Shown here: positions 6,001 to 27,000 of the stretch, one piece after another
Numbering within the stretch: the first letter of the stretch is position 1
How the letters are laid out: each line of letters starts with the position of its first letter
Source of the DNA: Candidatus Omnitrophota bacterium
Lineage (GTDB): Bacteria; Omnitrophota; Gorgyraeia; Gygaellales; Profunditerraquicolaceae
Assembly (NCBI GenBank): GCA_041650835.1
Contig: JBAZKL010000001.1
Span: forward strand, 701,617 to 765,616
DNA: 64,000 nt
Direction: 5' to 3'
Program-made: the position numbers and the translations under genes
The notes under the pieces: generated by a model
Told to the model about the DNA's origin: nothing
Databases searched by the model: none
What the model saw: only the letters and a program-made list of their open reading frames with translations

Positions 6001-9000
6001 TAATTTTGACAGTTCCCTTCCGACACTCCCTCCCCGGGGGCGGCTAAAATCGTAAGGCTCACCGAGAGCTGATAAAACAATATTCCAGAGCATCTCATCG
6101 CGTAATCCTCTTACTCCGCCGGATATTTTATAAATAAAGAGCTGTCCTATATCAACAACAGCCCATAATGAAAAACCCCACTGGACAATCCCGCTTAACC
6201 GCAGCCAAAGGGGAAGCGCGGCTCCGGCGATATTTAAGCCGATAAGCAATAATAAAGCGGCACCGAAGAATATGTTAAGAATACGCAGATGAATGAATAT
6301 CCTGACAAAGTTTTCTTTTGCCTGCCAGGACAAATCCCTATAACGGAATATCCTGATAAGCCAGAATAAAGAGGCAGTTGCGCCATAACTGATAATGGCT
6401 ACTGCCGCAGGGAGCAGGGCTGTTTGCCCGGTGAGAGAATACGGCAGCAAAGCTAACCCCGCCAATGCCCAAACAAAAGGGGTCAGAAGCGCGAATACAG
6501 CCCTATTAGATAATATATTCGGCATGCTCCTTTTGAGCATGCTCTTGGAGCCGCCCCTGTTTAACCGAGTTAAAGATACGCCGTATCGGCTCAAAGCCAG
6601 CGGCGAAGAAGATAAAACGCGCCTGCCGATAACCCCCTGCCAGCACTGAAGCTCTTTACCGGGCGCTACGCATTCCGCGCCGAAATATTCTTTTGCCCAA
6701 CGTTCCATCACGGCGTTTCCTTTGGCTATGGAAAACCTGATTTTGTTATTCAGGCGACTGCTTTCAAGGAAAACTACTATTTTCTTGAACGTCTTTGACA
6801 TTAAATATTTTCCTCTCAATCGCGCGGTCACCTCCGGCGTGCGGCCTAAAGAAAGATAGTCAAAATTAACATACCGTTCGAAAACCGCCGCTGAAAAGAC
6901 AAATTCAAAATCATAATTACTTATGCTTCCTTTATTAATTTTATCTAATCGTGATCTTATATAGCGCGCCTTGTCAATTATCACCGCGTATTCAATATTA
7001 TGAGGAAACTCCAGTTTGAGTTCAATAAGGACCAAGGTATCGCCGCAGCCATTCAAATATTCTTCGAGCTTGCCAGCTGACTCGGAAGGTTTTGCGCTTA
7101 ATTTAAATATCCTTAGTTTTTTACCGCCATTAAAACTTTTAAAGGCGGATAACAGGTCGTCTGCCACGAATTCGCTCGATGGCCTTTTTAATAAAGAGGC
7201 AAGTGTAGTAAAGGCTTTTTTGACTGAGCGCGCGGTAAATGCATAGTGCCGGCACGGCATTTCTGTCAGCGGCGAGGCGGCAGTAAAAACACAAGTCATC
7301 TTTGACTCATACGGCTTAAAGCCGTTTTTCTTTTCTAACGGAGAGGACGCTTTTTGCTTCCAGGAGCGATAATCCGCTTTTAATTGCGCGAGGGTTTCCT
7401 CGAAGATATTGATCAGGGCGAGGGTTTCCCCTTTATCCGCCTTCGGCAATGAATTGTATTTTTGTTTAACGCTGACGAGCATTTCTTCAAAGATAGCTAT
7501 CGCGGAGCCATACGCGAACTCTTCGGCAGCACAAACATGCTCTCGGGACTCAAAAGCCCCGGCGATATCATGATCGTATTTCCCCGGATCAGCTTCAAAA
7601 TCATAGACGTGCCCGAAAAGCTCATGCGCCAGCACAGCCGGGAACATATTCTGTTTTTCCTCAAACAAGTCGGTTTGAAAAACAATAAGGTACGTATACG
7701 GTTTGCCGGCCCCAGGGCGCAGCGCGATCGTGATCGAAGGGACGGCTCCCTCGAAATAATACCCGAGAGAAGAAGCCAGCCGCGCCACATTATCAGCCTT
7801 GAAGAAAAGAAGCCTCTCTCCTGAAGCGTACAGAGGCTTCAAAAGCTCTTTACGCTTCTGCGCGGTTTCGCTGAGAGTAAGAAAGCCTAACGTATAGCTT
7901 AAGTACTCATCTTCCATATCGGAAAGGGCCTTAAGCTCTCTCTGGAGCATGCTGCCTCTATCCGGGCTTTTGATAAGATCCTGCGCGAAGAGCTTTCTTA
8001 TATCGCTTAAGAACAGGCTTCCCGCTAAAATCGTTATAAACTGCCTGCGGGTAAACATCGCGGAAGATGCATAGCGGCCGATGGCCCATAGCCTATAATA
8101 GTCCATAGCCTGATCTCTTGAAACCGCTAATAATCCCTTATATTTTCCAACAGGGCTGCTGGACTTTGACCCTCGGGCTTCAAGGCACTCGAAATAGAGC
8201 TGATCGAGGATCAAAGCTTTTCTCTCTCCAAAACGCCCGAGAAAATCCTCATAATCAAAGAATACATATAATTTTACCAGGAATTGATGATCGTCCTTGC
8301 CGATATTCAATAAATAAGAAAGCAGGTAATAAACCTGCTCGAATTCTCCTGTTTTAATAATGCCGCGCAGCAAATCTATTTCCCCCTTATCGGAAACAGG
8401 CTCTATTGCCGTATGCAAAGCGCTCACTATGGAAATCTCTCCTATTCCCAGGTCGATCAAAGTTTCCCGGCTGACCCTATTTCCCAAATAATATCCATAC
8501 GGATACTTGAAATATTCATATAAGGACCCGCTCGGACGGACCGTATCTTTATTCTGGAATTCCACCTGATATATTTCCTGGTGGGGGATCCCCCTATACG
8601 TTATCTTTCCTAAATGCAAACCTATTCTGGTGGCATTCAAGCTAAAGGCATCCTTTAAACTAAGCTTAACGACATAGCTGAGCCTGTAGCGATTCCGTAG
8701 CCCCCCCAGCCGGGACCGCAGCCACTGCTTATATATCGGATCATGCGCCATAGGTAAAGCTATCACGATCTTCTCCTCAAGATTACCTGCCGCGTCAAAC
8801 TGTTCAATGTCCTGGCTGAGCACGATAGCTTTAAACAAATGCCTTATATCTTTACCTATATACCGCACTATCTTCTGCTGTTTAACCTCCCAATATCTTC
8901 CATGCCCATTTGTCAGCTGGTAGCCGAACCGGTAGATCCCCTTATGCTGTTTTAAGAACATAAGCGGCAATATTCCAAACTTCTCTTCTTCTACACCCAA

Positions 9001-12000
9001 AATATTTACCTCTTGAAAAGTAATCGGTGAAGCTGAAGCTAACAGTTTTCTGCTTTCAAGCAGCTTCTCCAGCTCAAGCGAACGCTTTTCATACATCCCC
9101 GTATCTTGATATACTCCCGTCTCAATAATAAAAGCGTTCACGGCAGCGGGAACAAGCCTCCCGACAGATGATCCGTCGCGGACCATCCGACGGATCTTAG
9201 ATGAAGACAGATCAGCGTCTTGTGGATCGGGAATAAATTGCAGAGTAAGGATCTTATCTTTTTCTCTAACTAATCCTTGATATTCAAGCGTATCTTCGAT
9301 CCGGGCCCCCTGCCTGTCCATGACCACAAAATCGTTTTCTTCCAATAATCGCCCGAAATCGCCCGCGAGCGTTGATTGCATTGAATCCTTGCCGACAATA
9401 AAGTAAATTTTGATTTCCCGGGAATACTGCTGCCGGTAATACGCTTTTAAAGCTACAGACATTTCCTGATACCAGCCGGTGTTGACTAAAAACAATTTAT
9501 CGATCCCCGGCTTACCTTCTGCCTTATATTCATCAAAAACTGCCTTTACCGTGAGGATCCTATCCTCAAGCGACATGCCGGAGACCTCTTTTTCAAAGTG
9601 CCTGGTCCCGATTAAGAGTATTGTTTCATCCAAGCTTCCTCCTCCCGGCAAGCGTATATCTTTGGCTACTTCACTCAAGAACTCGTGAGCGTTATGCAGG
9701 CAGTTGGCGGTCGGGACAATAACGCCTATTTTAACCGGAAGGGCTTTTTGCGTTGTTTCCCGGTATTGCGTTACCAGGACAGCCGCAGGCGTCTGCCGTG
9801 AATTTACCTCAATGATCTTCTTCCGAGTGAGCTCATATTCTTCCAGGCAGTTCCGGGGAGACCATCTTCCCACCGACTCTATATCTGCGAAGAACTCCTG
9901 CCAATCCTGATCATCCAACACTTTGGCAGCCATTATCAAATTCTCAAAAAAGCGCCTTTCTCTTTCATCCTGTTCAAGGCGTTCAATGGTATTCCACCGC
10001 ACCAGCCAGGTAAATTGCTGAATGAACTTTAACCGCAGCATCTGCGGGATAGCCCGGATCTCCTGCCTGTTTAAAGGATACCCTAACTTCTCCGCTGCTT
10101 TCTGATACAAGATCACCCAATTCTTTAGTTCATCCATATTAAATTCAGCGCCTGCCTTTTGCAGGTCGTAGAAAAGGCTGCGGATCAAATCGTAAACCCT
10201 TGCTTCCGGCCTGGCAATTTCCCAGTCAAGCACCTTACTGATACGCGCACCCAGCATGGTCACGTTTTCCGCGCGGAAATCACCATGGATCACTGCGCGC
10301 GGCAGGCGGGCATATACCCCGGCCAAATGGCGTATCGCAAGGGCTATCTGCTCTTTGAAGAAAGGCTGATGCTCTATAAAAAGCCGCTCCCCGAAGCTCC
10401 TCCCGGCAGGATCTTTCGCGGTAAGGCGCTCGTACGCTTCGTCTAATTTCAACAGACGGTCATCGATTCCCGCGAATTTGATCACGGGATCGGTGATCCT
10501 TTCCCCGCGTAAATGCACCACGCGCGCATCCATGGTAGAGGCATGCAGCCAGGCAAGAAATCCTGCCAGGTCTTTAAGCATTTCAGCGGTCAATTCTTCA
10601 TACGCGTAAATCCTTCCCAAAGAGTCAAACCGATAGACGGTAAAAATGGCGTCGGCTTCAACATAGGCGGCATTGCCTTCTTCCGTATATATAATCTCAG
10701 GGAATCGGGCGTCTCTTAAATTATTAAAAAGTTCCGGCTCCCACAAAGTGCCTTTTAAGTCCCAAACTGATTTTTTAATAACCACCCTGCCTTTATTACG
10801 CGTATCCAGGATCGCGACTTTATTATTCAATCCCTGGAAATCAAGCGAATCGCTTTCGATTTCCAGCCCATAGGCCGCGGCGATCCGCCTGAGCTCATGC
10901 GCGGTGATCTGTACGGATTTATCGCGATGCACAAAAGATTCACGCTGCTCCCAGAGGCTATCGAGAGCGAAAGAGAGCTGCTCTATCACGTGGGTAGGAA
11001 GAAGCCCTCTTTTTCTTTTTTGTTCTCTTACTACCATATCCGCCGCCAACCCATGGACATACACCCCCAATACCGCCGCTTCACGGGGAGTGAGGCCTTG
11101 AGCGATAAGTCCGGCAATAACGCCGGTAAGGACGTCCCCCATCCCGGCTTTTGCCATATATTTATTTCCGGTAGAATTACTATAGACGCTTCCATTCGGA
11201 CAGGCGATAAGAGTACGTTCGTTCTCATCCCCCTTGAGCACGACCACCGTTCCATACGCGGAAGCAAATTCCCTGGAGATATCCGCGCGGCGGGATTGTA
11301 TTTCTTCAAGAGGGATACCGCTTACGCGTGCCATTTCAACAATATGCGGAGTAATGACCGTCCTGCCCCAGGCATTACGCAGGATTGAAGCCTTACCCGC
11401 CAAAGCATTAAGTGCGCCGGCATCCAGGACTAAAGGAATCCGTGTATTTCTTAATAACCGATACATGACCTCATGCGCCTGATCTTGTTTTACGATAAGC
11501 CCGGGGCCTATTGCTAAAGCGCCTATTTTATTCTGAGAGATCTCCCGCAAGAGCCCTTCTGCCGACAGCAGGTCAAACGAATGATCTTTTTGGTGCGGCA
11601 ACGCGCAGGCCATAACCTCATCCGCCGACTTAGCGTAAAACATGCTGTAGAGATATTTCAAGACACCTGCATATACCATACCAGTGCCGCTCTGCAACGC
11701 TGCTTTTGACGCCAACTGCAGCGCGCCCAAATATTTCCCTATCGAACCTCCGGCAATCAATACTCTCCCTCGGCTGCCTTTATGGTCATTGGATCTTACT
11801 TCCGGCACCAAAAATGCCGCGTCCTGTTCATCAATGGCCTGGATTTTGCGGTTTTTATCTAAGCTTGCCTCAATAAACAATACTATTCTCGGAAAATCGA
11901 CATTTTCCGAAACAATCTCAATATCTTCTGACCATAACTTTAACTGCCTCTCCGGAGTAAAATTATCCACACTCACCGTAAATCCAAGCCCAGAAAGCAC

Positions 12001-15000
12001 AGACACATATTCTTCGACTGAAAAATACTGCCAACTCTCTTCTTTTTCTATATCCCACCGCTGGTCTCCAACATATTGATATTCGCAGACAAAATGCATA
12101 AAATCTTTCTTGGATATCCTGACCATATACTCATCGCCTTCGACCAGATCAAACGGCACGTCTTTAGGCAGGAATTCACGGGCAAAAACATAAAAAGCAT
12201 CTTTAATATTTTTACTTTTAAATTTCATCACAACCTGATCATTTTGTTCGTCTTGCGCAGTATCCGCGCCGTCATAAATATACAAATGCCCTGCTGGCTT
12301 AAGCATCTGAGTAATATTGCCTAATGCAGTGCGCACAAACTTGAGGCCAAGCTCATGATTAATCCTTTCCTCGACACGGCGGGTAGGCCTGCCATAATAT
12401 GAATAGACTTCATGGAGAGTATTGGTAACCATGACCACATCAAAACGCCGCTTTAAATCGCTCGTATCCTGTTCAATGATATCGCGCACGATAAAATGCA
12501 TATCTGCGGCGACGAGTTGCGCTTCATCAACAATGTCAGGGTTGATATCAATACCTAAATATTCAATATACGGGTTATCCGGGAATGCCTCTTTCAGGAC
12601 AGCCAGATCGATCGCCTGTCCGCAGCCGATAGACAATATAGAAACCTTGCCCCCCTGTTTTAAACGCTCCCTGATAAACTCCTTCACCCGCTCCATGACC
12701 TTGCCTTTACCGTCGATCCTCTTACAGGAGGCCATCATGGTTAAAAGATATTCCTTAAATGTCTGCCCGCTTAAGGCGACCCTGCCCTGCGCGTATTCGG
12801 CAAAACCTTGATAAAGGCCATGCTCCCGGATATACCGGCAGATCTCATCCGGCACAAGGCCCTGGATAGGAGCTTTTTCCTTAACGAATACCCTCACTTC
12901 CGCGGAGCTGTGTTTTTGATACTCTTCGTCAATGAGTAACGGCTGTAAGTTACCGGCATACGTATGGCAAAACAAAGATCGCTCTTTAAAATCCGCGAAG
13001 CGCAAATCCTTCTCATCCGCGATGAGAAAATGACGCCCCTCAAAAAGCGCGGGTAAAACTTCCTGATCGCCGCCATAATCCCAGGAAAGGATACGCTCGA
13101 AAGAACGCATGCCCAGGATCACATACAGATCATCATGATGGAGCTGTTTTTTAAGCGCTTCAAGGATATCAACATATAAGCTTTTATAGATCACCTGACA
13201 GGAATACCGGGGGTTCCTTTGGACGAACAACTGAAGCATTTCTTTTCTCTGTCCGAGGGTTGTCCCGTAGGCTTTTGTGTGCAGGGGGTTGGCAGTAAGC
13301 ATAAGGATCATCTTATCCAGGCCGTATTGCATGCGCGCTTCTTCCATCATTACCTTCATCGCGGTGGTAAGGGGATTGAAAGCGCTGATAAAAATACCCG
13401 TTTTAGAGCGGCCGTGCATTGCTTTGATCATGGGGCTGGAGGAAGACGCCTGCGGAGGGGCGCGGGAACGCATAAGCGTTGCCAACGCGGATGAAGACGC
13501 GGGGCGGACGGGTAAATCATGCAAAGTAAGGATACTCACTCCCGGACAGCGCAGCGGCCTGAGGATCAAAGCATCACCCATAAACCCGAAACGGCCTGCT
13601 TCCAAACCCGAAGGCATTGCATTATTTACTTTCCGTAAGTGATCCTGCGCGTTATGAGTTAAATATATATTTCCCGGCTTTTTAAGAAACTCATCATTCC
13701 GGCCCATCATCGCCGGCCGCTCCAATATCTTAGAATTCAGAAGGACCGCGATCTTACTCTTACGAGAGAGATACGACTCATAAACGCAGCTTGGCAAAGG
13801 AGATTTTTCTTTCTGAGCGCCCTGAGAAGGATACTCCCGGCAAACAACCGGCCGTTTTCCATATATTGAACACCTGCCGAGCCAGGACAACCCTTCAGGA
13901 AGATCAAAATCTACCAGGACCTTTAAGAACCAGCAAGGCTTCAGGATAAAGAGCTTCTGCTTATCAGGATCGTAAAATAGCAGCTCCAGGGCATTATCAT
14001 AGAGAGGGCCCCACTGCTTACGCATACCAAATCCCGCGACGCCGATATCATACCAGGCGCTGCTCCCGGGAGAAAGAAAACAACAAAAACCATCCTGGCA
14101 GATATTTTGCTTAATATTAAACGGCTGCGACGCAAGCTCCAGGCTGAAATAATCTCTCTTACTCATACCAAAGACCGAATACTTGTCCTCACCACAGGTG
14201 GATACACAAGCCAAGGGGTTTGACGCGGTATTTTTATTACGCTCATTATAAATACCTTCTAAAACTACAAAAATGATACGGATATCTTCATCCGCTAAAG
14301 AAAACTCATCCTTTATCTCGTCTTGTTTTTGCTTAATAAAATTTGTTAAAACCGACAGGTCATGCGGGGTTTTTTCTATAATAACCTTACCTCCCCGGGT
14401 CAGGTATAATTCAGGGTCCCGGCGTTCCCAAGACATATAAGCAAGATGGGTCAAAGCGTCAGCTCGAGGATCATCCCATTTATAATGAGGATCTTTTATT
14501 TTTGTCGCCCTGTCTTCTGCGGAAAATCCGTGTTTAAAGAACTTGTATTTACGCGGTTCTTCCCGGCAGGTCTGTACCCACATTTGATAGATCCGCTCCA
14601 AATCAAGGTCGGCGCAAAGCAAATCAGCGTCATAGAGTACTTGCGCCTCGATCTTTGCTTGCGCTGTTTTAACCTGTAAAGCGTCCGCAGTCTTAACTTT
14701 TTTGTGCCCCACGATAGCGCTTACAATATCCTCAATCACTGTTTCATCAAAATATCCTGATTCTTCCAATAACAGCCTCGCCCAAAGAGCTGAATAACGA
14801 TGATGGTTCTTCTTATAAAAGAGATATGAGAGATCATGTAACAAAACAGCGAAAACAAGAACAGAGAAATTAAAACCTCCCGGAGCATTATGTTCATGAT
14901 CCCCCGCTTTAACTATTTCAATACTCTGCCGTAAGACCTGCAACACATGAATAAAACCATGTTTAGCCTCTACAGTCAGATCGGCGCAAAAACGCGAAAA

Positions 15001-18000
15001 GAGACAACGAGGCAAATAACGGTACAACATATCCAAACATCTCTTAATATCACCAATGACATTTTTTCCGGACGATGTTACAAAACCCCCTTTTAAAACT
15101 GTCTCTATTGATCCCGTATGACGGGCAATTTCTTCACTAAAATCTTCCGGAAAAAGACATTCCTGGAGGATATTCTCGCCTGATGCCTCTTGGGGAGAAC
15201 AGATTAAACGGGCGAAGAATGATTCAGCATTCTCCGCAATCACCTTATCCAGAAATCCCTGTATCTCTAAAAGCCCGGTATCATCAAGGTTATCTTCTTT
15301 CAGAAGGCGGACCAGTTTTTCTTCTTGAATAGCTGAACTGGAGCGGGGCTTCACCTTGAGATCCCGCTGTGTTGCCGGGAATAACACACAAGGCAAACCG
15401 ATCTGAGTTAAACGGTAAGAACGGCAAACCACAAACGGCGATGAGCTATGATTTCCGTCATTTTTAAGCTGAAGAAGGCTTTCCAGGCATTGCATTTCTT
15501 TTATTATTTCGTCTTTAAGCTCTACGGCATTATCTCCCAGCAAATTATTAATATTTCCCAATCTCTCAGCTAATGTCAAGCGACTTAAGAATTGCGGGCC
15601 CAGCCTTTCTTCAAAGCTCATTTTTCCAATAACTGCGAATAAAATAGTATCATGTTGGCTCTTATTCTTAATTGTAAACCCTTGGATACGCTCTTCTTTC
15701 TCGTTATTTATGATAATAAGGTCACCGCCTAAGAACATATTTCTTACCCCTAACGCCCTCCCCTTTTCATCATACAACTCCACTTCCCCCCTCAAATCAT
15801 GGATAGCCGCATCCATGTTCCAATAAGAATTAATTATCTTTGGCCATGGGAATATTCGTACCGTTTGGAATCCAGGATAGATCGGATTCACATCGAAGAT
15901 GCCACTTACCATCCCCTGATTTAATGACACGATCCTGACCTTCACATAGACAACACCCGTTGATATGGGCAAATGCTCTTCACTAAAGGCCATTTGATGG
16001 TTTCTATCTATTCGTAAACCATGGATTAACCCCGGATAATAATGCGTGAGAACCTCTCCTCTGGCTCTGCTCAATTGCATTCTCTCCGGGGGTATAATTT
16101 CGATGTGCTCCCGGCCAGCCTCTTCGGGATACGTAAAACCCTTTTGCAATTGTACAAGCGGGTCTTTAATAGTAAAATCAGCCGACGCGAATTCATGCGG
16201 GTTAGTTATTCGATGCAATGTCTTTGCAGGGACCTTGATCATTGCTCCCGCGGGGACATGCCAAGTAGACACCGCACCTTTTGAGTCTGCCTCTTCTGCC
16301 AAAATATCCCCTGTTAAAGAAATAGTTAATTCCTGGTCGTCATGATAATGGTTGTTTTGAACATGCCGCGGGGGGTTTTGCACTTCACTGATAGCTATAC
16401 CATCCGACAAATACATCAAAGGATGCAGCGCGAAATGGTGATGCCGGGGCTTAGCGTCGCTCTCCCCGAACCTGCTGAGCTGGAAGAAAGGCACAACAAA
16501 CACAGGAGCCTCTTGCGTTAAATATAAGAACGATTCTTTTGACAATCTTTTCGCGCTTAATACCGCCTCTCCAAGAGCATCTTGCAACGCGGGCGTTTTG
16601 CTCACCTCATACTTTAGTTTTTTCAATCTCTCATGGATCTCAAATGCGGCGTATAGCCTGCTTTTCCTGGCTTCATAGCTGATCGTATCGATTTGAACGC
16701 TCTGCCGTTCATTGAACACCCTGACGGCTTGCGCGTGTATCAAGCTGAGTTTAGAAAGCTCCTGGGCGATCACTGCTGATTCAAGCGGTCTTACAAAAGA
16801 CCGGGCATCATATACCAACTCCTTTGAATATTTCAAAACACCAAAGTAAGTTTTTACTTTTGATAAATTCTTAGGGTCATATTCGTTTTTTTTATACAAA
16901 AGGATCTTCGATTTATTATTCTGGTAATAGTGGACAGCTTTCTCAATTTGACTTACGATTTCCTGAGTAAAACCATACGGCCGCACTTCAAAGCTAAAAA
17001 ACTTTTCATTTCCCTGGAGGAACTCAAATAAAGAACCGCTCAAGTGCCTCCAAAATCGCAGCGCGTCGTTGACATCGACATTTTGTTTACTAAAAGTATG
17101 GATTTTAAAGGCTGCCCTGCGGTATTCATACTCGCTGTAATCACTGGCATTGAAGAAATAAGCGAGCCCTTCCTCGACAAGATACGGGGCGATACTGATC
17201 TGCCCTTTTGTCGCGCTGCCTCCAACCTCTTCATCAACCACATACACGTCAGTATCCAAAAGATACCCCCCTATAAATCCAAGCAAGTGCATTTGCCTGA
17301 CAAAATGTATATCATCCCCCAGATTGCCCAACAATGACAGGAACGGGTTTATTTGGATAATATCTCTTCGTGTCGCAGTCACCATTCCCAATACAGAGTT
17401 CGTAACTACTAAATTATTACTTAAGAAGTGTTTTAGCAGGAATCTCGGTTTATAAAACTCCATATTCTGATTATAGGCGGGGACGCTCACCATTGCGAAT
17501 TCCGGATTACTTCCCAGCACTCCGATTAATTTCTCAATAACAGGGCCGACCAACTTAATATCATCATCGACAAAAACCTGATAATCCCCGGCAGACAAAG
17601 AGACCGCCAAGTTTCTATTTGTCGGTATTGTATTCTTCTTTGAACAGACAATTTTTACGGGGAACGGCACTGATCTTATTTTCTCTTCAACAATATCACG
17701 TTTTTCGCGAGTAAAATTCTCAGGATCTGCTATTGTAATAACAAGTTCTAATTCTATTTCACCTGATGCCCTGGAGAGCTCTTCCAGTCTTCTTAACAAT
17801 GACGCGTGTCGTTTTCCAAATACCGATGCTATTGCGACGCTGACCTTGACCTTTTTTGCGGTTAAATGCTGATTATAGCTATACACCTGTCCCCGGCACT
17901 GGGGTAATTGAGTATCCCAATAATTCCTGCTCAATTGTTTAAGTTCGCCAACCTTTTGAGAGAACTGCTGTCTTGCTTGGAACATTTTCTGCACCGCGTC

Positions 18001-21000
18001 ATCATCGATCTGAACATCGACTGAAAAACCCTGCTTTTCAAAAGTCCCGTTATGAAAGATGCCCGCTTCCCGTGCGATCAAATAAACCTGTCTTTTTTCC
18101 TTATCGCTCAAGCCTTCTAAATGATTATTAATACGCGCGGTGACCTCATTAACATAATGCTCAGAGAATATGTCTTTTACTCTTTCCCGGACTACTTGGG
18201 TTATTGTAAAATCATGTATGGTTTCAACTCGTTTCAACAACCAGTTAATCGCTCCGTGGCCTGTGAGTTTTCCTCCGCTGACAGCGTCAATAGAGCTACT
18301 AGACGTTTCTCTCTGGCGTAACGCCGCAGGAGTAAGATTAAAACCGCGTAAATTCCCGATACCAGTGACCATTGATAAGCGGATCACTGATAAATCAGCC
18401 AGAGCAGAGGAACACGGGGACGGTTGCTCAAGATGCAGATCCACTAATTCACCGCTTTTATAATTTTCCCGGAAAAATCTCTCTCCGAATTCCCCGAACT
18501 CCACCTGATGCGGGCCCCGCTGGGCGGAGAGCCCGGCACGGGAGGGAATAATTATGGATATCGCCCGTTTAAACGGTTCAACAACACCGCACTTCTTCCC
18601 TGCCTGATCATCACTTGAGCTATCCGGTAAAACATTCGTTGCCGTGGGGAAATAAGTATTATACTTTCCGGCTGAAGGCGCCAAGTAATAAATAACCGTT
18701 ACATTAATATTATTTTCTCGAGACAGCCTGACCCATACCCGCTCTAAGAGACGGGAGAATATTCGATGAGTTTCATTATCATCCCTGGGATGAGGGATGA
18801 ACAGAACTACCGCGGGATTCCCCCTTGCCGATATACTTTTATTAATAAATCCCTTTTCGAGGGAATAGAGATGTTCTTCTACCCCTTCGGGATCGCGGGA
18901 GCAGGCCAAGTCATAATCCAAGTGAATGTTCTTTATCCGGCCGGCAGATAAAATACCCGCGGCATTACTCAATTCCTGCCTGCGGATATCCGCCCCTGTT
19001 AAACCTTTTTCCTGCTGCGCTTGAGTCAAAACCACGCCGCGCGCACCGCTGCTATAAACCACATTCGTAATATCAATACCTTTTTGAGCCAACCGCACGC
19101 CTAATCCACCCGCCGCAATTTCGATATCATCGGGATGCGGGGAATAAAATCTGAAACAAACATTCCTGTTTATTCTGACAGGAACAAACCCTGCGGGCGT
19201 TCGTTCTTTCTCAAACGCCAACACATACCTCTTTGAAAGCTCTACCGGTAAAATCTCCCCCCTTTTTATACGCGTCACCGTAAAGGCGTGAGCGTACGCA
19301 TTTTTATCGTGCGTGAAACCATAGTAACCGGCTAAAGCGCCCGCATAGCGCATGGCATGCCGGGTAAAACTTTTGTAATCACGGCGCTCCTGCTGTGACT
19401 TATGCGCACCGACAGCTTCTATTACTTTTCCCGCGGTTTCTTCACCAAAAGAAAAAACGAGATTAAACTCAGGAGGCAATTCCAGGGAAGCATAATAAAA
19501 CGCAAGCAACTCACGCTGCCTCAGCGATGAATACAGGAGTATCAAATCTTTGGCATGCGGGCAATACGGGGCCAGGATAATTTCAGGGTCATAATCCCCT
19601 AATACCCGCTCTAAAGGAAGATCCTTCCAGGTAAATACCTTGACCTCATTTTCCTCCCGAAGGGCGTTGACAAGATTTCCCGCGAAAGCTAAATGATCGC
19701 CTTCTGTTATCTCAAAAACAGCGATCTTTTTTCCGTAAGGCACAGGATAATTCTTCATGCTGTCCGTGATTTGAGCCTTAGTAAGAAGGATATTCCCTTC
19801 TAAAGGATAAGCCGCATTGTTAACAAGCCGCTTCTTATGTTCATCATAGGTTACCGGGATGATCCTTAAGAAATCGTCAAAAAGACCTTCGAGAACTTCA
19901 CCAAAGGGATCGCCGGACTCATGCAATGCGCCGCGAGCAGGAAGCCCCGGGTATCTCTTGAGGTATTTACCCGGATACCCCACCAGCAAACCAAGCAGCT
20001 CGATCAGGCAATTAAAATTATACATATATTGCTGCCGCAATACTTCCGGGATATTTTTAATCGCTTCTGAATCCGCATTTTGTTCCAAATATACCCTTAC
20101 AATACCCGCTACAGTAATATGGATCCTATTACTATGCCCGGGAGGGACGGAAAATAGCGGGGTAAAGTGTTCCACAAATCTCCAATGCAGGCCGTTCTCC
20201 ATAGTTACCGGAAAGGTTCCTGAAAGCGGGAAATTCTGACTCAATAGATCCTGAAAAACCTCTCCATTAACCCTGACCTGCAATTCCCGGTATTTTGGAA
20301 AGAATTTAACTGCCAGAGACGGTTCATCCCTATGCTGATAACGCTGCTGGCGTTCCTGCCTATCTCTTTCCCAGAAAAATAACGGGATTTGAGGGCCGTA
20401 TAAGATCAAAGTCTCTTTTTTGGCTTTATCGATCAGTAACGTAAAACGCAATGTCAAAGGATCCTCGAAAAGCTTAAGCACAAACAATTGTTCCGTAGCG
20501 TAAATAGAGATACATCCTGCGTCCCAATAATACTGCCCTATTCTGTCTTTGCCCCATTCAAAAGTCAAATTTTCGTTATTCGTTTCCCCAAGCGCGCTTG
20601 AACTGGATTTTTTCTTAGGATCTGCCTGCTTTTGTCTTTTTTTTCGGCCCTTTGTCGCTGCTCCTTTTTTCTCCTGAGGAGCGTTGCCTTTCTTTTCTTT
20701 GCGCGCCTGTTTTTCCTCCCCGCGTAAAAAGGCCTCTCTGACAGCGAGGCGGGGGAATAAAACCAGGCTCCCCAGCAGCATCGCGATAGTAGCATAAAAA
20801 GGCATTTGGCCGATAAACCCGAACAAAACAGCCGCTTCGGTAATTATATTACTGACGGCATGGAGCATAATAATGGCCCATAACGAACTTGTCCTGGCAT
20901 ACACTGACGCGTAGACTACCCCGGACAGGAATTGCTTGATAGGTATGAACTTGATGCCGGCAAAAAACGGCAGGATCAAATGATAGGCGGCGAAAAGAGC

Positions 21001-24000
21001 CGCGCTTATAAAAATGCTTTTGCCGGTGCCTACCTTATAACGCTCGACCAATAAACCTTTAAATATGACCCTCCTGAATAAGATCTCCTCAGCGACAGGA
21101 GCCATAATGATATTAGATGCCAGCGATACCATATAAACAGTAAAGCCGCTTGCGAAGAAAGCGGCAACTACTATTGCAGCGGCATTAACCGCAGTAAGCA
21201 GGACAGCGGCAATAAACAGCGTGGATGTTTTCAGAGAAGCTATTTCTTGTTTAAGCGCGGATGAGGCGCGCGGATGAGGCGATTTTGAAGAAACGATAAC
21301 GCGTGTTCTTACCCGGTGCAGGGTGAGCGCCAAGCCTCCGCGCTTTGCCAGGGCAATAAATTCCCCTTTTTGTTCAGGCATAAGCTGCGCGGCTTTAAAC
21401 CAATCTAAGAGCGCACAAGAAAAACCAATTTCCAAAACATGCTCCAATTCAATCCTTCTATTCTTAAGATACCCTTGAACCAAGGGTATTATCGCCTCGA
21501 TTTTTTCCGCTTGGATACCCTGCGCAAGCAACGCCTTTCTGATCAGCGCCAAGCGGCCATTTTCACAAAGATAATCATTTACCTTACCCAAAGCCTGCTC
21601 GACCGGTGAAAAGTTTATCCTCACCCCCTGGCCGCGCTCAAGAAAAACGCCCATCGCCCGGTATTCTTCATAACTCCTTTGCGGAGCTTCCGCGGCGCAT
21701 AAAGAAAGAGGCAAAGCGAGAAACAGCACTTTTGCTATCGCAGCCCTGATAAAAAAGAGCGCTTCGGTTAAATCAACTGACTCATATCCGTCTTCTATCA
21801 AGATCCTGTTTAAATGCCTGCTTCGTTCACCTAAAGGTGAGATCCCATCGTTTAAAGTAAAATACCATTGCGTCAACTCCTTGCCCTGCTTCTTGATCTT
21901 TTGGGATTGCTGCTGCTTCGGCTTGATAAAAGGCGGGCGGGCTAAATTGATGAAAATATTTGTTTGTTTGAGGTGACTTTTTACCTGTTGAGACATCTCT
22001 TTGGCAGTAGCGGCCTGGATAAGCCGGACACCTTCGGGAGGCCGCGCGTGGGTCGGGCCGCTTATAAGGATAACGCGAGCCCCGCTTAAGTGAGCTATTG
22101 CCGCGATCGCGTAAGGCAACTCCGGGCTTACCTGGCGGCTAATGATCCTGACCCCATCAATGGATTCTTCGCTTGAGCCGGATGAGATCAAGATTGTCTT
22201 TCCCGCGACGCCCGCGAACGGCGGATACCGTTGCGCCTGCTCCAACCGCGCTGTTTCACCTTGTTCCCGAAGCTTTCCTTCCAGCTTCACAGACCGGTAA
22301 ACCGGCCTGAGCGAACGCTTACCGCGGACATCTAAAACTATATCCAGGATCTTATCGGCAACAACTGATTTAGATGCTTCCAAGCAAAGATCATCGTCTT
22401 TATTTTCCCTGATGATCACTACTTTATTGTTTTCACCGCGGAAGCCGCTTCCTTCCTGCCCTACCCTATTGGCGCAAATAAAATCCATATTCTTAGCGAT
22501 GAATTTCCTGCGCGCTTCTTCCACCATCGCTCCCGGCTCAACAGTCTCCGCGGCGAAACCAACGACCACTAAGGATGAAAATTCGAGTTTTTCTTTCTTA
22601 AGGCTGCCGACCCATTTTAAAATATCGGGATTATTATGGAGCGTCACGACAAAATCGCGGCGGCCTTCTCTCTCGATCTTTACCGGACGGTAATCAGCTA
22701 CTGCCGCCGCTGAAATATAGACATCGGCAAAGCGCAAATTCTTAGCCACCGCTGCTTTCATTTCCAGGGCAGTGGACACATCGACCCTCATCACGTTATC
22801 AGGAGTTTCTAAAGATGCGGGCCCGGCGACAAGGATAACGCGCGCTCCCCTCTTTTGTGCCGCGGCGGCGATGGCAAACCCCTGCTTTCCTGACGAGAAA
22901 TTCGTGATATATTCAGGCCTGCCCGGGATAGGTTCCCGGTTCGGCCCTGCGGTAACCAGTATAGTCAGGCCTTTAAGATCATCCGCCAAAGAAGAAGAAC
23001 TTTTTATATATTCGCTGTAAACTTTCGACTCGGGGCTCATTTTCTGGGCCACGTGTTCACCAAAGGGATCATCCGTTAAACGATACAGGCTGACCTCGAT
23101 CTCAGGTGCAACGCGCGACGGTGAATATCGGGTAACACAAAACCCTCCCGGGGCAAGCATCTTCCTTAAAATATCCTGCTCCAGCGCCAAATGGGCTTCA
23201 TACGAAAAACTATCGATCATTTTATTGACCAGAATAAAATCAAAAGCTCCCAACTGCGTGCGGATTTGCGCTTCCAAGAAGTTTGCCGAAAGGAAACCGA
23301 CCATTGTTCTTAATCGGGCGTTCACTAAATACGCTCCTGTTTCATCGTCGAAGGTAAAATATTTATTTACTGTTTCCCCGGAAAGGCTGTCAATACTGCT
23401 TTTCCTAAAACGCCCCGTTCGCGCGGCTTCAAGGGCAAAGCGGTTAATTCCAACCTCAGCGATCTCAACAGGACGCGCTTTTGTATCCCAACCGCTTTCT
23501 AATAATTCAACAGCCAGCATGTACGCGTCAGCGCCTTCTCCGTAGCCCAAACAGAGTATGCGTAACGGTTCACCCTGCGGGCGCAAACGCTCCAGTTCGG
23601 GAAGAATGACCCGGCACATGAATTGATGCACCGGGCTGATCTCAAAAGAAGCCCCCCCGGTGATCATCACCGCGTTCAGATAAACCTGCGCGCAATCGCT
23701 TTTGTCCCACATATCTCTTGCTAACCGCTCAAAATCAGCGGTACTTTTGAGTTTAAATAACGCCGCCAGAGATTCATCATATAAAACAAAACAACTGCCG
23801 TAGATGGGAAAATGTATTTTGAATATATTCTCAATGAGTTTTGTATAATATCTCATTTGCGCCTGTTCGCTTAAATTACTATTCACGAAGGCGTATTTTA
23901 TCAGCTCCGATGGATACAAGCCAAACCGCTGCGCGATATCCAAAAGATGGCCGGGGAAACACCACGACCCTTTACCTTGCTCGATCAACCTCTCCATATC

Positions 24001-27000
24001 TTCCCGAACGTACCTGATATAATCATCTTTCCCGACGCCCAATTCCAAAGGCGCAAGCCCCGGTAAAAGAGGATATACGCTTTGAATTGCCTCTCTCAAG
24101 AGCAGGGATTCTTCCTCCGTAACATCCCAGGTAACCCGGCTTTGCCGGAGCGCGATCTTGACATGAGCATCTTTATCAAGCTGTCCATAAAGCCTTCCCC
24201 GGTGATCCTTGACCAAAACAACTCTCTCTTGCCCATGAATGATTTCGTTTACCTCGACTGCTTCATGAGTTTTAAACGCGAAGTAGTAAAACAGCTTATC
24301 CTGCAGCAAGAAAACAGCTTTGCCTTGCTCCTGAAGGCTGTATAACGCGATCATGTCATCCGTATCCCGGATATGCTCATCAACGCGGGACGTAATAAAA
24401 GTGGCTTGCGCGTAAGTGAGCTTACCCATAAATGTATAGAGCAGAAAATAATATTCGAGGTTTGTGCGCGTAAAGATCCGGTCCTTAATTACATATTCCC
24501 ACTCAATACGGTCTAAAACATAATCGATGGTGCAGGAGCTCAAATAAAGACGGATCATGGTCTGCGGATCAGTTAAGCAGAATTTCACCAGTTCATCCGA
24601 ACCGTCTTTATGGACCTGCTCTATTTTCCAGGGGGCCAAGCTTCCACGGCAATATTTCTCAAAGAACCATCCCCACCAGTCGATCCGCTGCCTGCCTGCC
24701 AGTCCATCGGGCGTCCGGGCGTCAAACGCGGGGCTCACCAGCAGATATTGCATCAATTTAACCGTCTCTTCACCCGCATCAACGACCCGGTTATTGACAA
24801 CCAACTCCCGGCGCTCTTTACCATTGATCGCCCACACATTTAAACCCCTGGTTTCTTGCCGCGATTCAAACCTGACAGAACGTAATGCCGGGTCTACATG
24901 ATCGTCTTTGCGCATTAATACCGATACCTGCCTGCCGATAGGCTTTTCTCTGCGGCTATCCCTGATAATGGTACAGTAAAAACCAAAGTTATAAAATGAA
25001 AGGATAGAATCGACGAACCTTCCTTGCCCGCTGATCTGCGCGTCCTCTGCCCTGTGTTTAACATAATCGGGAGTTTCCCCTAAGGCCAGGTCAAATACGG
25101 ATAATTCCGGCGCGTTAAGATCGAACAGGAAAAAGACAGGCAGAGAAAGCTCAAAATGGTTACCATGCACCAAGGCATTATGTAAAAGGTCCCGCAAAGC
25201 GAAATGTATTTCCCCGTAGTTAAACCCATCTCCGCAGCAGGACATATTCCTGGACCGGCCGGTAGGCGTAAAATTCAATTGCCGCGCGAACTCCGCGTCG
25301 ATCAATTGAGCGAATGTATCAAATTCACTCGCCCTGTTGCAGATAAGCTCAAGAGCATGCCCCTGCTTTATGGCGGGAATGACTTTATTGACCGCCTCCA
25401 GGGCATCGCAAAAGGAATCCGGTGAGCCGGTAAGATCTAATTTGATTATTTCTTTGCCTGTTTTATTTCTGATGCGGTCACGAAGAAAGCCTATCTTATC
25501 AGTATCGAACAGCGGAGAAGGTATTTCTTGCCGCTTACAAACAGGCGGCAGCTCTTTCTCTCCCCAATCATCCAGGTCAGGCGGGTCGCGGACCTCATCC
25601 CAACGCGCGTAAAGCTCCTCAAGAGAGATGCCCACATCCGCTGTCGCGGCTAAACCTTCACCGATGATCTTGTCCGCGTCAAAGTCCTCATCATCAACGC
25701 ATCCGGCATAATAATCGTCTAACTCCGCCTGGGTAAGGAGATTTGAATATCTGCGCTGCTTTCTGGCGACCTGGTCTTTAGTAAGCACGCAGAGGCCATT
25801 GCCGCTTGGAGCGCCTAATGCTCTGGTATAGCTGAGCTTTGCTTCATTTGATTCACGACGGGATCTAAGGGGCGAAGAGCCCTCCTGCGAATGCCTTCCT
25901 TGAACCGGAGAACCGGATGACGGCTTAATATTCAACAGGCTTGCGATCTGCGAGCGGATATTATCAACCAGCAACTTAATGCTTCCGGCATCCTGCCGTA
26001 ACCGCGCAATAACAGGCAGCGCGTAATCTCCCGCTAAAACCATAATACGCTTTTGATTCTCCTCTTGTTCCAAACAAAAATACGCCGCATGGGCCTGATA
26101 AGCATCTCCAAGCCCCTGAAGATAGCATTCATAATGCTTACGGAAAACCTGCGGCGCCGGATGAGCAAGCGCGGAATAAACATGCGCGGCTTCATAATGG
26201 TCCTCGGAAGGCTCCCTCTTAAGATACCCGGGATGGAGCATGCTTTCCCTGTCGATATTGATCACCGGCCTTTTTTCGAGAATGATCAGTTCTTCTATCG
26301 GGTATTTACGCAATTTCTCCACATTTATCACTAAATTGTGCCGGCGGTCATTCATGCCTAAAATATGGGCCTCTGCCATAGCCATGCCCAGGCCATAAAA
26401 GAACCGCCGCTGTATTTCTTCACCCAGACGCGACAGGTCCCAGATAAATTCCAGGATATCGATCCCGACGATCTCGCGGATATAGACATATTCCGGGCCT
26501 TCCTTCATCCAGACACTGGGAGCTTGAATTGCCTCAAGCAGCAAATTCCCGACAATACCCGGGATAGTATGTTCTTCGATACTGTTCAAACGCGATTTTA
26601 TCACCACGCGGGAAATTAACCCGTTCGGCTTGATTATCACCGCGAAATACGGCTGTGTGCGCGCTTCAGTGATCTCCCAGATAAGCGGACGGTCTTCGAC
26701 CCTCAAGATGCGGGCGCCGCCCAGGTCAGCCCGGAGAGATTTCTCTATCAAGAACACCTTTTGGCTTCCCGGATGAATAAAACGCATACAATCGGTATGA
26801 CGGGGCAAGCGGATAAACTCATCATCGATAAGAATCCGCCGCTGCAAACGCCCAAAGATCACGTTGACAACCTCATAATCGCGTATATTGCTTAATTGCC
26901 AACGCTCCTCCCGCGTTAACACGCCTCCTTCTATAAGACGGTCCATCGTTAAGATGAACTGAATATCGCACGGGCCGGCTCCCGCGCCATTCTTTAACCG

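Follow-up and report, generated by a model that had tools for sequence, protein, structure and literature searches.

The minus-strand region at positions 13780-19200 of a 64,000-nucleotide stretch of Candidatus Omnitrophota contig JBAZKL010000001.1 (the whole stretch being called the window here) is very probably an arbitrary slice of 1,807 codons from a giant gene, no shorter than 64 kb and of the multi-enzyme (Archaeovorin-like) kind known from Omnitrophota, in which four independently conserved units appear to be joined that are combined differently in other giant open reading frames (ORFs). The slice would hold a stretch of about 490 aa with an LmbE-type metal-dependent deacetylase, a GT-A/GT2 glycosyltransferase fused to a bicupin, a YedJ-type HD phosphohydrolase, and a YkgJ-like Cys-rich metal-binding domain. 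Giant multi-enzyme genes of this phylum have been described since 2022-2023 and were catalogued by the hundreds in 2026, and the present gene is a further instance. The original prediction, made from the letters of the window, had read five folds here as a coherent block for sugar and envelope tailoring and had not connected the ORF with the giant genes that earlier publications describe from Omnitrophota.

On the minus strand, positions 1..63999 of the window form a single stop-free frame of 21,333 codons that is open at both ends. A six-frame count finds no stop codon in minus-strand frame 2, versus 746-1,667 stops in each of the five other frames (3.5-7.8% of codons). The frame thus fills the 64-kb window and is not confined to the roughly 5.5 kb originally ascribed to it. 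Codon p of the ORF lies at window positions 63997-3(p-1) to 63999-3(p-1), and the region is in frame, free of stops, and equivalent to ORF residues 14,934-16,740. Residues are given below in r numbering, where r1 is the codon at 19198-19200 and the count runs down from 19200. Every string quoted in the original prediction is present in the translation of the region. Only one other ORF of at least 150 aa exists in the window (163 aa, plus strand); the plus-strand ORFs within the region are all shorter than 100 aa, lie in stop-rich frames, and were treated as spurious. The window yielded no Rfam family or tRNA and a single tandem repeat, a 27-nt array at 21255-21281. Selection on the frame is visible in the GT2 module, which aligns to its closest relative (locus L001, on a contig of 40% GC) over 500 codons with no indel, a nonsynonymous divergence (pN) of 0.24 and a saturated synonymous divergence (pS) of 0.75, giving a ratio of nonsynonymous to synonymous rates (dN/dS) of about 0.05 or lower. 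The 5.4-kb contig of L001, which encodes the best homologue (P0001), is likewise open throughout. The low dN/dS and the open contig of P0001 indicate that the frame is a selected coding sequence and not an artefact.

Homologues are few, and those that are named come from the same phylum; the window itself carries no marker gene. A word-indexed search of 5.8 billion proteins returned two relatives, both partial proteins from Candidatus Omnitrophota metagenome-assembled genomes (MAGs), and none when unit 1 or the bicupin module was used as the query. HMMER, run exhaustively with r810-1905 on 1.84 billion representative proteins, recovered 72 homologues, which separate into three families of about 27 (r811-1250), about 40 (r1290-1690) and 5 members (r1690-1890); every named member among ten sampled hits belongs to a Candidatus Omnitrophota or Omnitrophica MAG. 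When the 74 homologues are mapped on the ORF, their alignments fall into the blocks r-494..250, r301..1283, r1294..1660, and r1700..1890. Among the alignments listed, none joins the PIG-L domain to GT2 or the bicupin to HD, and a few from the HD family continue up to the YkgJ-like stretch or overlap part of its beginning. Of the five folds, GT2 and bicupin form the only adjacency that recurs among the 74 homologues, while the PIG-L, HD, and YkgJ-like units are always accompanied by other neighbours. No paralogues of the five domains were found elsewhere in the ORF.

The same units are also found as, or at the ends of, ordinary proteins of 0.4-3 thousand amino acids (kaa). P0004 is a complete gene of 2,148 aa, preceded by a separate NUDIX gene, in which the match to unit 2 ends 34 residues before the stop codon. 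P0005 is a complete gene of 3,120 aa with APH, GT2, cupin, NUDIX, and NDK domains, P0011 carries the HD unit as a stand-alone gene of 426 aa, and P0002 is a gene of 1,793 aa in a row of five same-strand genes. This distribution suggests that the units behave as genes fused in frame, and the earlier view of separate enzymes collapsed into one frame is borne out by P0004, P0011, and P0002.

Unit 1 (r-466 to r264; 18409..20601, minus strand, as are all features below) consists of about 490 aa without a family match followed by a PIG-L/LmbE-like domain, and its edges are marked by the pentapeptides SSSAL (ORF aa 14466, r-467) and CSSAL (r264). It is collinear with residues 880-1619 of P0002 at 38% identity, or 39% over the PIG-L part. 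The core of the domain (r20-153; 18742..19143) passes the cut-off of PF02585 (41 bits versus 28.2), matching profile positions 4-126 of 129. Its first motif, PHPDD at r21-25 (SPHPDD at r20-25), is canonical and aligns to the PHPDD of the diacetylchitobiose deacetylase Dac (8bgn), to which the N-terminal half aligns with E 3.5e-5 when a two-sequence profile is used. The domain therefore resembles the LmbE/PIG-L N-deacetylases MshB, BshB, and Dac in its above-threshold PF02585 match, in PHPDD with its His/Asp zinc ligands and Asp base, and in a Rossmann-like N-terminal half. It differs from them in that its second motif is HPRDDNETH and not H-x-D-H, all curated equivalog models score far under their cut-offs, and the domain sits within a 730-aa unit of a giant ORF. 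The best NCBIfam matches, all very weak, are the BshB/Mca deacetylases of thiol pathways. A low-molecular-weight-thiol pathway, pairing a BshB/Mca-like PIG-L domain with the CoaB Cys-ligase domain upstream, was considered and dropped, as the NCBIfam models score 12-18 bits where their cut-offs lie at 180-280. At the locus of P0002 (L002, 85-17271), which encodes PIG-L and TPR domains, genes of 2,869, 1,793, 551, 196, and 241 aa form a tight row on one strand with intergenic gaps of 11-184 nt, an arrangement that resembles a less-fused giant locus.

Unit 2 (r301-1255; 15436..18300) comprises a helical lead-in, a GT2 domain of the GT-A type, a C-terminal extension, a three-helix bundle, and a bicupin. 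It is collinear with P0004 (r310-1194, 47% identity) and P0005 (r301-1283, 42%), and its GT2 part shares 58% identity with P0001 in a gap-free alignment of 500 aa. The GT2 Pfam core (r497-587; 17440..17712) passes the PF00535 cut-off with 26.8 bits versus 23.3, and P0004 scores 39 bits for the same profile. The DxD motif reads FVDDD at r543-547, with the codons of the three Asp residues at window positions 17560-17568, and this motif, TNRNLA, and LGDDIH are invariant in four sequences. A weak match to GalNAc-T1 was also obtained (E 0.11).

The bicupin module (r810-1255; 15436..16773) is identified by its family profile, invariant ligands, an AlphaFold model, and Foldseek comparison. Its Cupin_2 (PF07883) score at r943-1003 is below the cut-off (16.2 bits versus 27.2), as are those of its homologues (15-26 bits), and it carries the strings HYHDDQE (r951-957) and PAG...H...N (r981-1000). 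Residues H951, H953, E957, H996, and N1000 are invariant in every homologue aligned (20-28 sequences per position). The first barrel would bind metal through a 3His-1Glu site formed by H951, H953, E957, and H996 (16192-16374), and the second barrel has no conserved His. Single-sequence searches of the PDB with the cupin, HD, and YkgJ-like segments gave chance-level matches only, so family profiles were needed for the cupin and HD assignments. The best matches of the bicupin family profile to solved structures are cupins, with OxdC first (E 0.009). An AlphaFold model built from a 13-sequence alignment, in which two beta barrels come after a three-helix bundle, has a mean predicted local distance difference test score (pLDDT) of 83.8 and a predicted template modelling score (pTM) of 0.82, and the top 50 Foldseek matches in the PDB are all bicupins (OxdC, vicilins, MncA, and quercetin dioxygenase; E 1e-13 to about 6e-11). 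The cupin call is thus confirmed by the invariant ligands and the confident model, and the module is a bicupin.

The known bicupin metalloproteins (OxdC, MncA, quercetin dioxygenase, and the 7S vicilins) share with the module two jelly-roll barrels (Foldseek E about 1e-13) and, in barrel 1, the canonical pattern G-x5-HxH-x3-E-x6-G followed by G-x5-P-x-K-x2-H-x3-N. TM-scores to the module are however just 0.35-0.41, its second barrel has no metal ligands, and it possesses an additional N-terminal three-helix bundle, motifs of its own (PSADFTxKDP after barrel 1 and PWP...W...GGD in barrel 2), and a position fused downstream of a GT2. Closer counterparts are the Omnitrophota proteins of 2-3 kaa, MFH2146065.1 (P0004) and P0005, in which GT2 and bicupin are collinear with the region at 42-47% identity over some 900-980 aa and the DxD motif and cupin metal ligands are kept. 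Unlike the region, both are full-length genes that have a start and a stop codon of their own, and their neighbouring units are APH, NUDIX, NDK, or HAD in place of PIG-L and HD. As only these two folds travel together, GT2 and bicupin probably act as a pair, on a substrate that may derive from a nucleotide-sugar. In relatives (L006 1606-10968, L001, and L004 443-10047), the pair has an APH kinase upstream and a NUDIX, cytidylyltransferase, or NDK domain downstream or in an adjacent gene, a recurring neighbourhood that differs from the one in the window.

Unit 3 (r1290-1660; 14221..15333) is a metal-dependent HD phosphohydrolase of the YedJ/2pq7 type, and a degenerate motif, ASNPL, comes after it at r1659-1663. 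Its HD Pfam core (r1416-1530; 14611-14955) contains LLHDLS at r1453-1458 and scores just below the PF01966 cut-off (21.2 bits versus 22). Compared with solved structures, the family profile matches 2pq7 (E 5.9e-17), YedJ (3gw7; E 8.4e-11), and further HD hydrolases. H1414, H1418, H1455-D1456, H1466, H1499, D1524, and D1526 are invariant or nearly so, being retained in at least 38 of the 39-41 sequences aligned per position, and the H...HD...H...H...D ligand set of YedJ/2pq7-type enzymes is thereby conserved. The differences from those enzymes are a length of about 370 aa, with conserved N- and C-terminal extensions, and the slightly low Pfam score. The contexts of the approximately 40 homologues all differ from one another. 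A phage-type integrase and an HTH gene immediately precede the stand-alone homologue P0011 (L003 7707-10143), whose contig is otherwise filled with short unannotated ORFs, and this setting suggests a mobile element.

Unit 4 (r1690-1905; 13486..14133) carries a YkgJ/CxxCxxCC-like Cys-rich stretch at r1701-1805 and ends with SSSAL (r1902) and SSSPM (r1920). Seven Cys and one Asp (C1701, D1703, C1706, C1707, C1756, C1777, C1787, and C1805) are invariant in seven sequences. The C-terminal motif, GRCSIYGKRPVVCREYP, is present and conserved, and it fits the PF03692 pattern C...C-x-I-Y-x2-R-P-x2-C-R-x-(Y/F)-P. The N-terminal cluster reads C-x-D-G-x-C-C, a variant of CxxCxxCC in which the invariant Asp presumably stands where the canonical motif has its second Cys. 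Assignment to the YkgJ-like fold is tentative.

The five folds originally proposed accordingly do not stand equally: PIG-L, GT2, cupin, and HD are firm and occur in the order given, and the YkgJ-like domain is a tentative call. Pfam searches place all five families at the expected positions, PIG-L and GT2 above their cut-offs and HD, Cupin_2, and CxxCxxCC below, and the cupin ligands, HD residues, Cys set, and DxD motif are invariant or nearly invariant in homologues. Since catalytic and metal-binding residues are kept and the sequence is under purifying selection, the units are taken to be working enzymes and not decayed remnants.

A short Ser-rich motif marks many of the junctions. The pentapeptide [AS][AS]SP[LVIFM] occurs 20 times in the ORF where 0.4 copies are expected from composition, an enrichment of about 50-fold, and the relaxed form [AS][AS]S[PA][LVIFM] occurs 34 times where 1.2 are expected. 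The motif can also be written (S/A)(S/A)SP(V/L/I), with examples at ORF aa 16185 (window 15445-15447), 16220, 9947, and 19130. In and beside the region, it or its near-variants (r-467, r264, r300, r1252, r1287, ASNPL at r1659, r1902, and r1920) coincide with the edges of homology blocks. Across the ORF, the strict motif lies within 30 residues of 13 of the 31 boundaries of homology blocks or internal repeats, versus 2.8 expected, and none of 5,000 randomisations reached 13. Units 1 and 2 are joined by a linker (18286..18411) with the motif doublet CSSAL (r264) and SSSSI (r300), where homology to P0002 stops at r250 and that to P0001, P0004, and P0005 begins at r301-310. The linker between units 2 and 3 (15328..15447) carries the doublet SSSPF (r1252) and SSSAI (r1287) at which homology blocks likewise stop and begin; disorder is predicted for this linker, where residues 433-446 of the bicupin model (r1242-1255) have pLDDT below 50. 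In both the bicupin and the YkgJ-like models, the motif falls in terminal segments with pLDDT below 50. The codons of the motif vary synonymously, which rules out a nucleotide-level signal and identifies it as a feature of the peptide, and the residues flanking its five-residue core show no further conservation. The idea that translation also starts inside the ORF, at the borders of units, was rejected, as Shine-Dalgarno-like sequences with an ATG follow the motifs in 2 cases where 2.9 are expected.

Among homologues, P0074 has 18 copies of the motif in 6,888 aa, of which those at 2247 and 2480 bracket its YkgJ-like unit (2263-2439), and P0002 has four. Many homologues with the same units do not carry it, so the motif is not required for unit function. 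It may be a lineage-specific linker mark that serves as a hinge, a modification site, or a processing site; short disordered linkers bearing it would then join the units as hinges or, possibly, sites of processing. In the ORF itself, a unit of about 1,150 aa without a Pfam match is present in tandem copies (34177-37542 and 30547-34116; ORF aa 8820-9941 and 9962-11151) that are approximately 31-41% identical and split exactly at an SSSPV motif (aa 9947). A third, partial copy of this unit, about 30% identical, is found 10,000 residues downstream (988-2382; ORF aa 20540-21004).

The giant product could be cut at or near these motifs to release free enzymes, as viral polyproteins are, and such processing would be compatible with a slice of four fused units. 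The roughly 50-fold enrichment at the peptide level, the association with unit boundaries and with internal-duplication edges (ORF aa 8758 and 9947), the motifs flanking the YkgJ-like unit of P0074, and the coincidence of the unit 2 end with a real stop codon in P0004 all fit this possibility, and proteolytic processing has been proposed for giants of this type, with no cleavage points known (West-Roberts et al., 2023). Apart from the Rce1-like protein, however, Pfam detects no peptidase domain in the window, and the missing motifs in homologues with the same units and the lack of conservation around the core also count against it. A disordered Ser/Pro-rich hinge, or a site of phosphorylation or glycosylation, explains the same data. 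Processing is thus a real but unlikely possibility, and it is equally doubtful that the motif constitutes a punctuation code of some Omnitrophota giants, marking junctions of former genes at which a precursor is cut or hinged. Viral polyproteins resemble the ORF in having a recurring short motif at unit junctions, but here both protease and cleavage are putative only.

A different proposal, implicit in the original prediction, is that one glycan or small molecule passes through all five domains in turn, to undergo deacetylation, transfer of a glycosyl group, isomerisation or oxidation by the cupin, and dephosphorylation, and that the domains were fused because they make up this one pathway. 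GT2 and bicupin are indeed conserved as a pair, all units share one membrane-free stretch, the relatives of unit 2 adjoin APH, NUDIX, cytidylyltransferase, or NDK domains with a nucleotide-sugar flavour, and the PIG-L domain leans, weakly, towards the BshB/Mca deacetylases of a thiol pathway. Nonetheless, GT2-bicupin is the sole recurring adjacency in the 74 homologues, where PIG-L, HD, and YkgJ-like units have unrelated neighbours, and the sample already suggests a random order of units across giant ORFs. The limits of the block are likewise arbitrary within an ORF of at least 21,333 aa that also includes unrelated domains. On the upstream side, Pfam finds a PrmA-like methyltransferase, a B12-binding domain, a ThiG fragment, more methyltransferases, two HATPase_c domains, and CheR, then two DFP/CoaB domains and an Rce1-like membrane protease before the region; a methyltransferase, NAD(P)HX dehydratase, APH kinase, and two cytidylyltransferase-like domains follow downstream. 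The G+C content of third codon positions (GC3) is 0.47 in the PIG-L module, 0.43 in GT2, 0.48 in the bicupin, 0.37 in HD, and 0.52 in the YkgJ-like module, against about 0.50 for the ORF, and this spread hints at separate histories, compatible with units from different donors. A dedicated pathway is for these reasons improbable, and the notion of one coherent tailoring block is not sustained beyond the GT2-bicupin pair.

The probable location of the units bears on their function. A simple hydropathy window gives 19 peaks along the ORF, with the main transmembrane clusters at aa 5313-5357, 14080-14420, and 19167-19486. The cluster upstream of the region (20740..21762; ORF aa 14080-14420) includes the Rce1-like CAAX protease (PF02517, 55.5 bits), and the one downstream (5542..6501; ORF aa 19167-19486) is identified from hydropathy. 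Between them, aa 14421-19166 (4.7 kaa) contain the region and have no transmembrane peak except a marginal one (1.66) in the HD core. The 50 residues past the upstream cluster include 18 Lys or Arg, and the 47 ahead of the downstream cluster include nine, with no Asp or Glu. GT2 enzymes need nucleotide-sugars, and methyltransferase, APH, NAD(P)HX-dehydratase, and cytidylyltransferase domains need S-adenosylmethionine (SAM), ATP, or CTP; Cys-rich metal domains are typically cytoplasmic. Based on the basic membrane flanks, read by the positive-inside rule, and these cofactor needs, the stretch is predicted to be cytoplasmic. The four units would then form, with the methyltransferase, NAD(P)HX dehydratase, APH kinase, and cytidylyltransferase domains, one cytoplasmic array, whose fusion may provide fixed stoichiometry and, in a cell of very small size, keep enzymes that act on sugars, nucleotides, and small molecules in one place.

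The published model for the class would instead display such a stretch outside the cell, where it modifies or degrades the cell-wall polymers of a host, as proposed for Archaeovorins (West-Roberts et al., 2023). An LmbE-type deacetylase could act on wall polymers containing GlcNAc, and the closest solved relatives of the PIG-L domain are diacetylchitobiose deacetylases. Both membrane-proximal flanks are nevertheless strongly basic, the enzyme types depend on cytoplasmic cofactors, and giants with transmembrane segments only have been read as membrane-anchored cytoplasmic arrays (Nielsen and Lui, 2026), all of which make an extracellular prey-degrading array improbable for this stretch. That the frame is a mis-assembly, the result of a reassigned stop codon, or a decaying and functionless fusion, as the lack of an identical protein on record might be taken to mean, is hardly credible given that none of the three stop codons occurs in 21,333 codons, that purifying selection is strong with no indel over 500 codons, and that catalytic residues are invariant across three module families and the module model is confident.

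Several points weigh against the reading of the region as four fused, functional units of a cytoplasmic multi-enzyme giant. The ORF ends lie outside the window, so that its length is a lower bound and an N-terminal signal, SecA-like domains, or peptidase domains may lie beyond. Scans of genome and metagenome contigs, run once with the 1,807-aa region and once with an alignment of the GT2 module, gave no closer locus that passed tblastn, and the homologues from which the affiliation is drawn are at most 58% identical. The units are assigned by family or fold and not by substrate. In the PIG-L domain, motif 2 (r137-145) has the spacing H137-x2-D140-x4-H145, which is non-canonical with respect to H-x-D-H; no solved structure aligns across it, and H22, D24, D25, H137, D140, and H145 are kept in P0002, the sole homologue available for the check. 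The CxxCxxCC match of the YkgJ-like unit (PF03692, r1776-1799) is below the cut-off (17-18 bits versus 23) and covers the C-terminal third of the profile only; the profile matches three of seven family members, all sub-threshold, with P0049 the best at 22.2 bits versus 23. The model of this unit has a pLDDT of 61, and Foldseek finds no PDB match at E below 0.8 and no solved relative. Many homologues, P0003, P0004, P0005, and P0014 among them, possess these units but no junction motif. Finally, the hydropathy window is a crude predictor of transmembrane segments, and published predictors often put such domains of giant proteins outside the cell (West-Roberts et al., 2023).

Compared with published descriptions, the window fits the giant Omnitrophota class. 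Giant ORFs, with genes longer than 20 kb, are a described hallmark of the phylum (Seymour et al., 2023). The Archaeovorin type is rich in glycosyltransferases and methyltransferases, and has many transmembrane helices, and the study that defined it catalogued genes of more than 90 kb; no cleavage points are known for it (West-Roberts et al., 2023, bioRxiv 10.1101/2023.11.21.568195). A protein of 39,678 aa from Velamenicoccus archaeovorus LiM serves as its type example. A later survey of 916 giant proteins of at least 10 kaa defines a class of 'multi-enzyme metabolic clusters' in which PF08241, PF02518, and HD domains form a co-occurrence module, and it is this survey that reads transmembrane-only giants as anchored cytoplasmic arrays (Nielsen and Lui, 2026, bioRxiv 10.64898/2026.06.07.730766). 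All three of these domains are present in the window, and at no less than 63,999 nt, or 21,333 codons, the ORF is above the 20-kb and 10-kaa size thresholds; the 90-kb threshold extends past the 64-kb window. Like members of the class, it is one ORF of tens of kb with many enzyme domains and no dominant repeat: about 20 distinct Pfam families are present, none in more than two copies (GT2, several SAM methyltransferases, HATPase_c, HD, DFP, Carb_kinase, APH, and CTP_transf_like among them). It also shares the glycosyltransferase, methyltransferase, HATPase_c, and HD content of the class, transmembrane-helix clusters at intervals, and highly divergent domains whose homologues are few, distant, and, where named, all from Omnitrophota. 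It differs in being an internal fragment without either gene end, with no Pfam match in these 21,333 aa to the divergent SecA_DEAD and N-terminal C39/S8 peptidase domains that are hallmarks of the class, which the missing ends could still hold, and no significant HEAT, TPR, GT5/GT1, glycoside-hydrolase, or NUDIX domain in the window. Searched by text, West-Roberts et al. (2023) and Nielsen and Lui (2026) do not mention PIG-L or cupin domains, and a Ser-rich motif, sought in one of the two, is not mentioned there. The ORF is comparable to megasynthases (polyketide synthases and nonribosomal peptide synthetases) and to the eukaryotic multi-enzyme fusions AROM and CAD in the number of catalytic domains on one polypeptide. 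It differs from polyketide- and nonribosomal peptide-type megasynthases in the absence of carrier, condensation, and ketosynthase domains and of an iterated module logic, and from these, AROM, and CAD in that no demonstrated pathway links its units.

Elsewhere in the ORF, housekeeping-type enzymes are encountered. The two DFP/CoaB phosphopantothenoylcysteine-synthetase domains (259 bits) are found at 22411-22977 (ORF aa 13675-13863) and, for the second copy, just downstream, and the NAD(P)HX dehydratase (151 bits) at 10978-11760 (ORF aa 17414-17674) is an enzyme of this type embedded in the giant ORF. The match to ThiG (thiazole synthase) at 48871-48996 (about ORF aa 5002-5043) covers the last 42 profile positions only; as it lies at the edge of a scanning chunk, the domain is probably longer and extends upstream into aa 4820-5001.

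The domain string of this region resolves into discrete units that have intact sites and also exist as ordinary genes, which directly supports a growth of giant ORFs through the in-frame fusion and shuffling of enzyme genes. One of the units, GT2-bicupin, is a recurrent and uncharacterised two-enzyme fusion that is suited to expression and assay. With the Ser-rich motif there is a concrete candidate for the points of hinging or cleavage that previous studies called unknown; were it a punctuation code, giant ORFs could be segmented computationally into functional units, and the choice between one chain and a processed polyprotein would be directly testable by proteomics. The argument for a cytoplasmic array of 4.7 kaa, in turn, bears on the unsettled choice between prey digestion outside the cell and metabolic organisation inside it as the role of the giant proteins of Omnitrophota.

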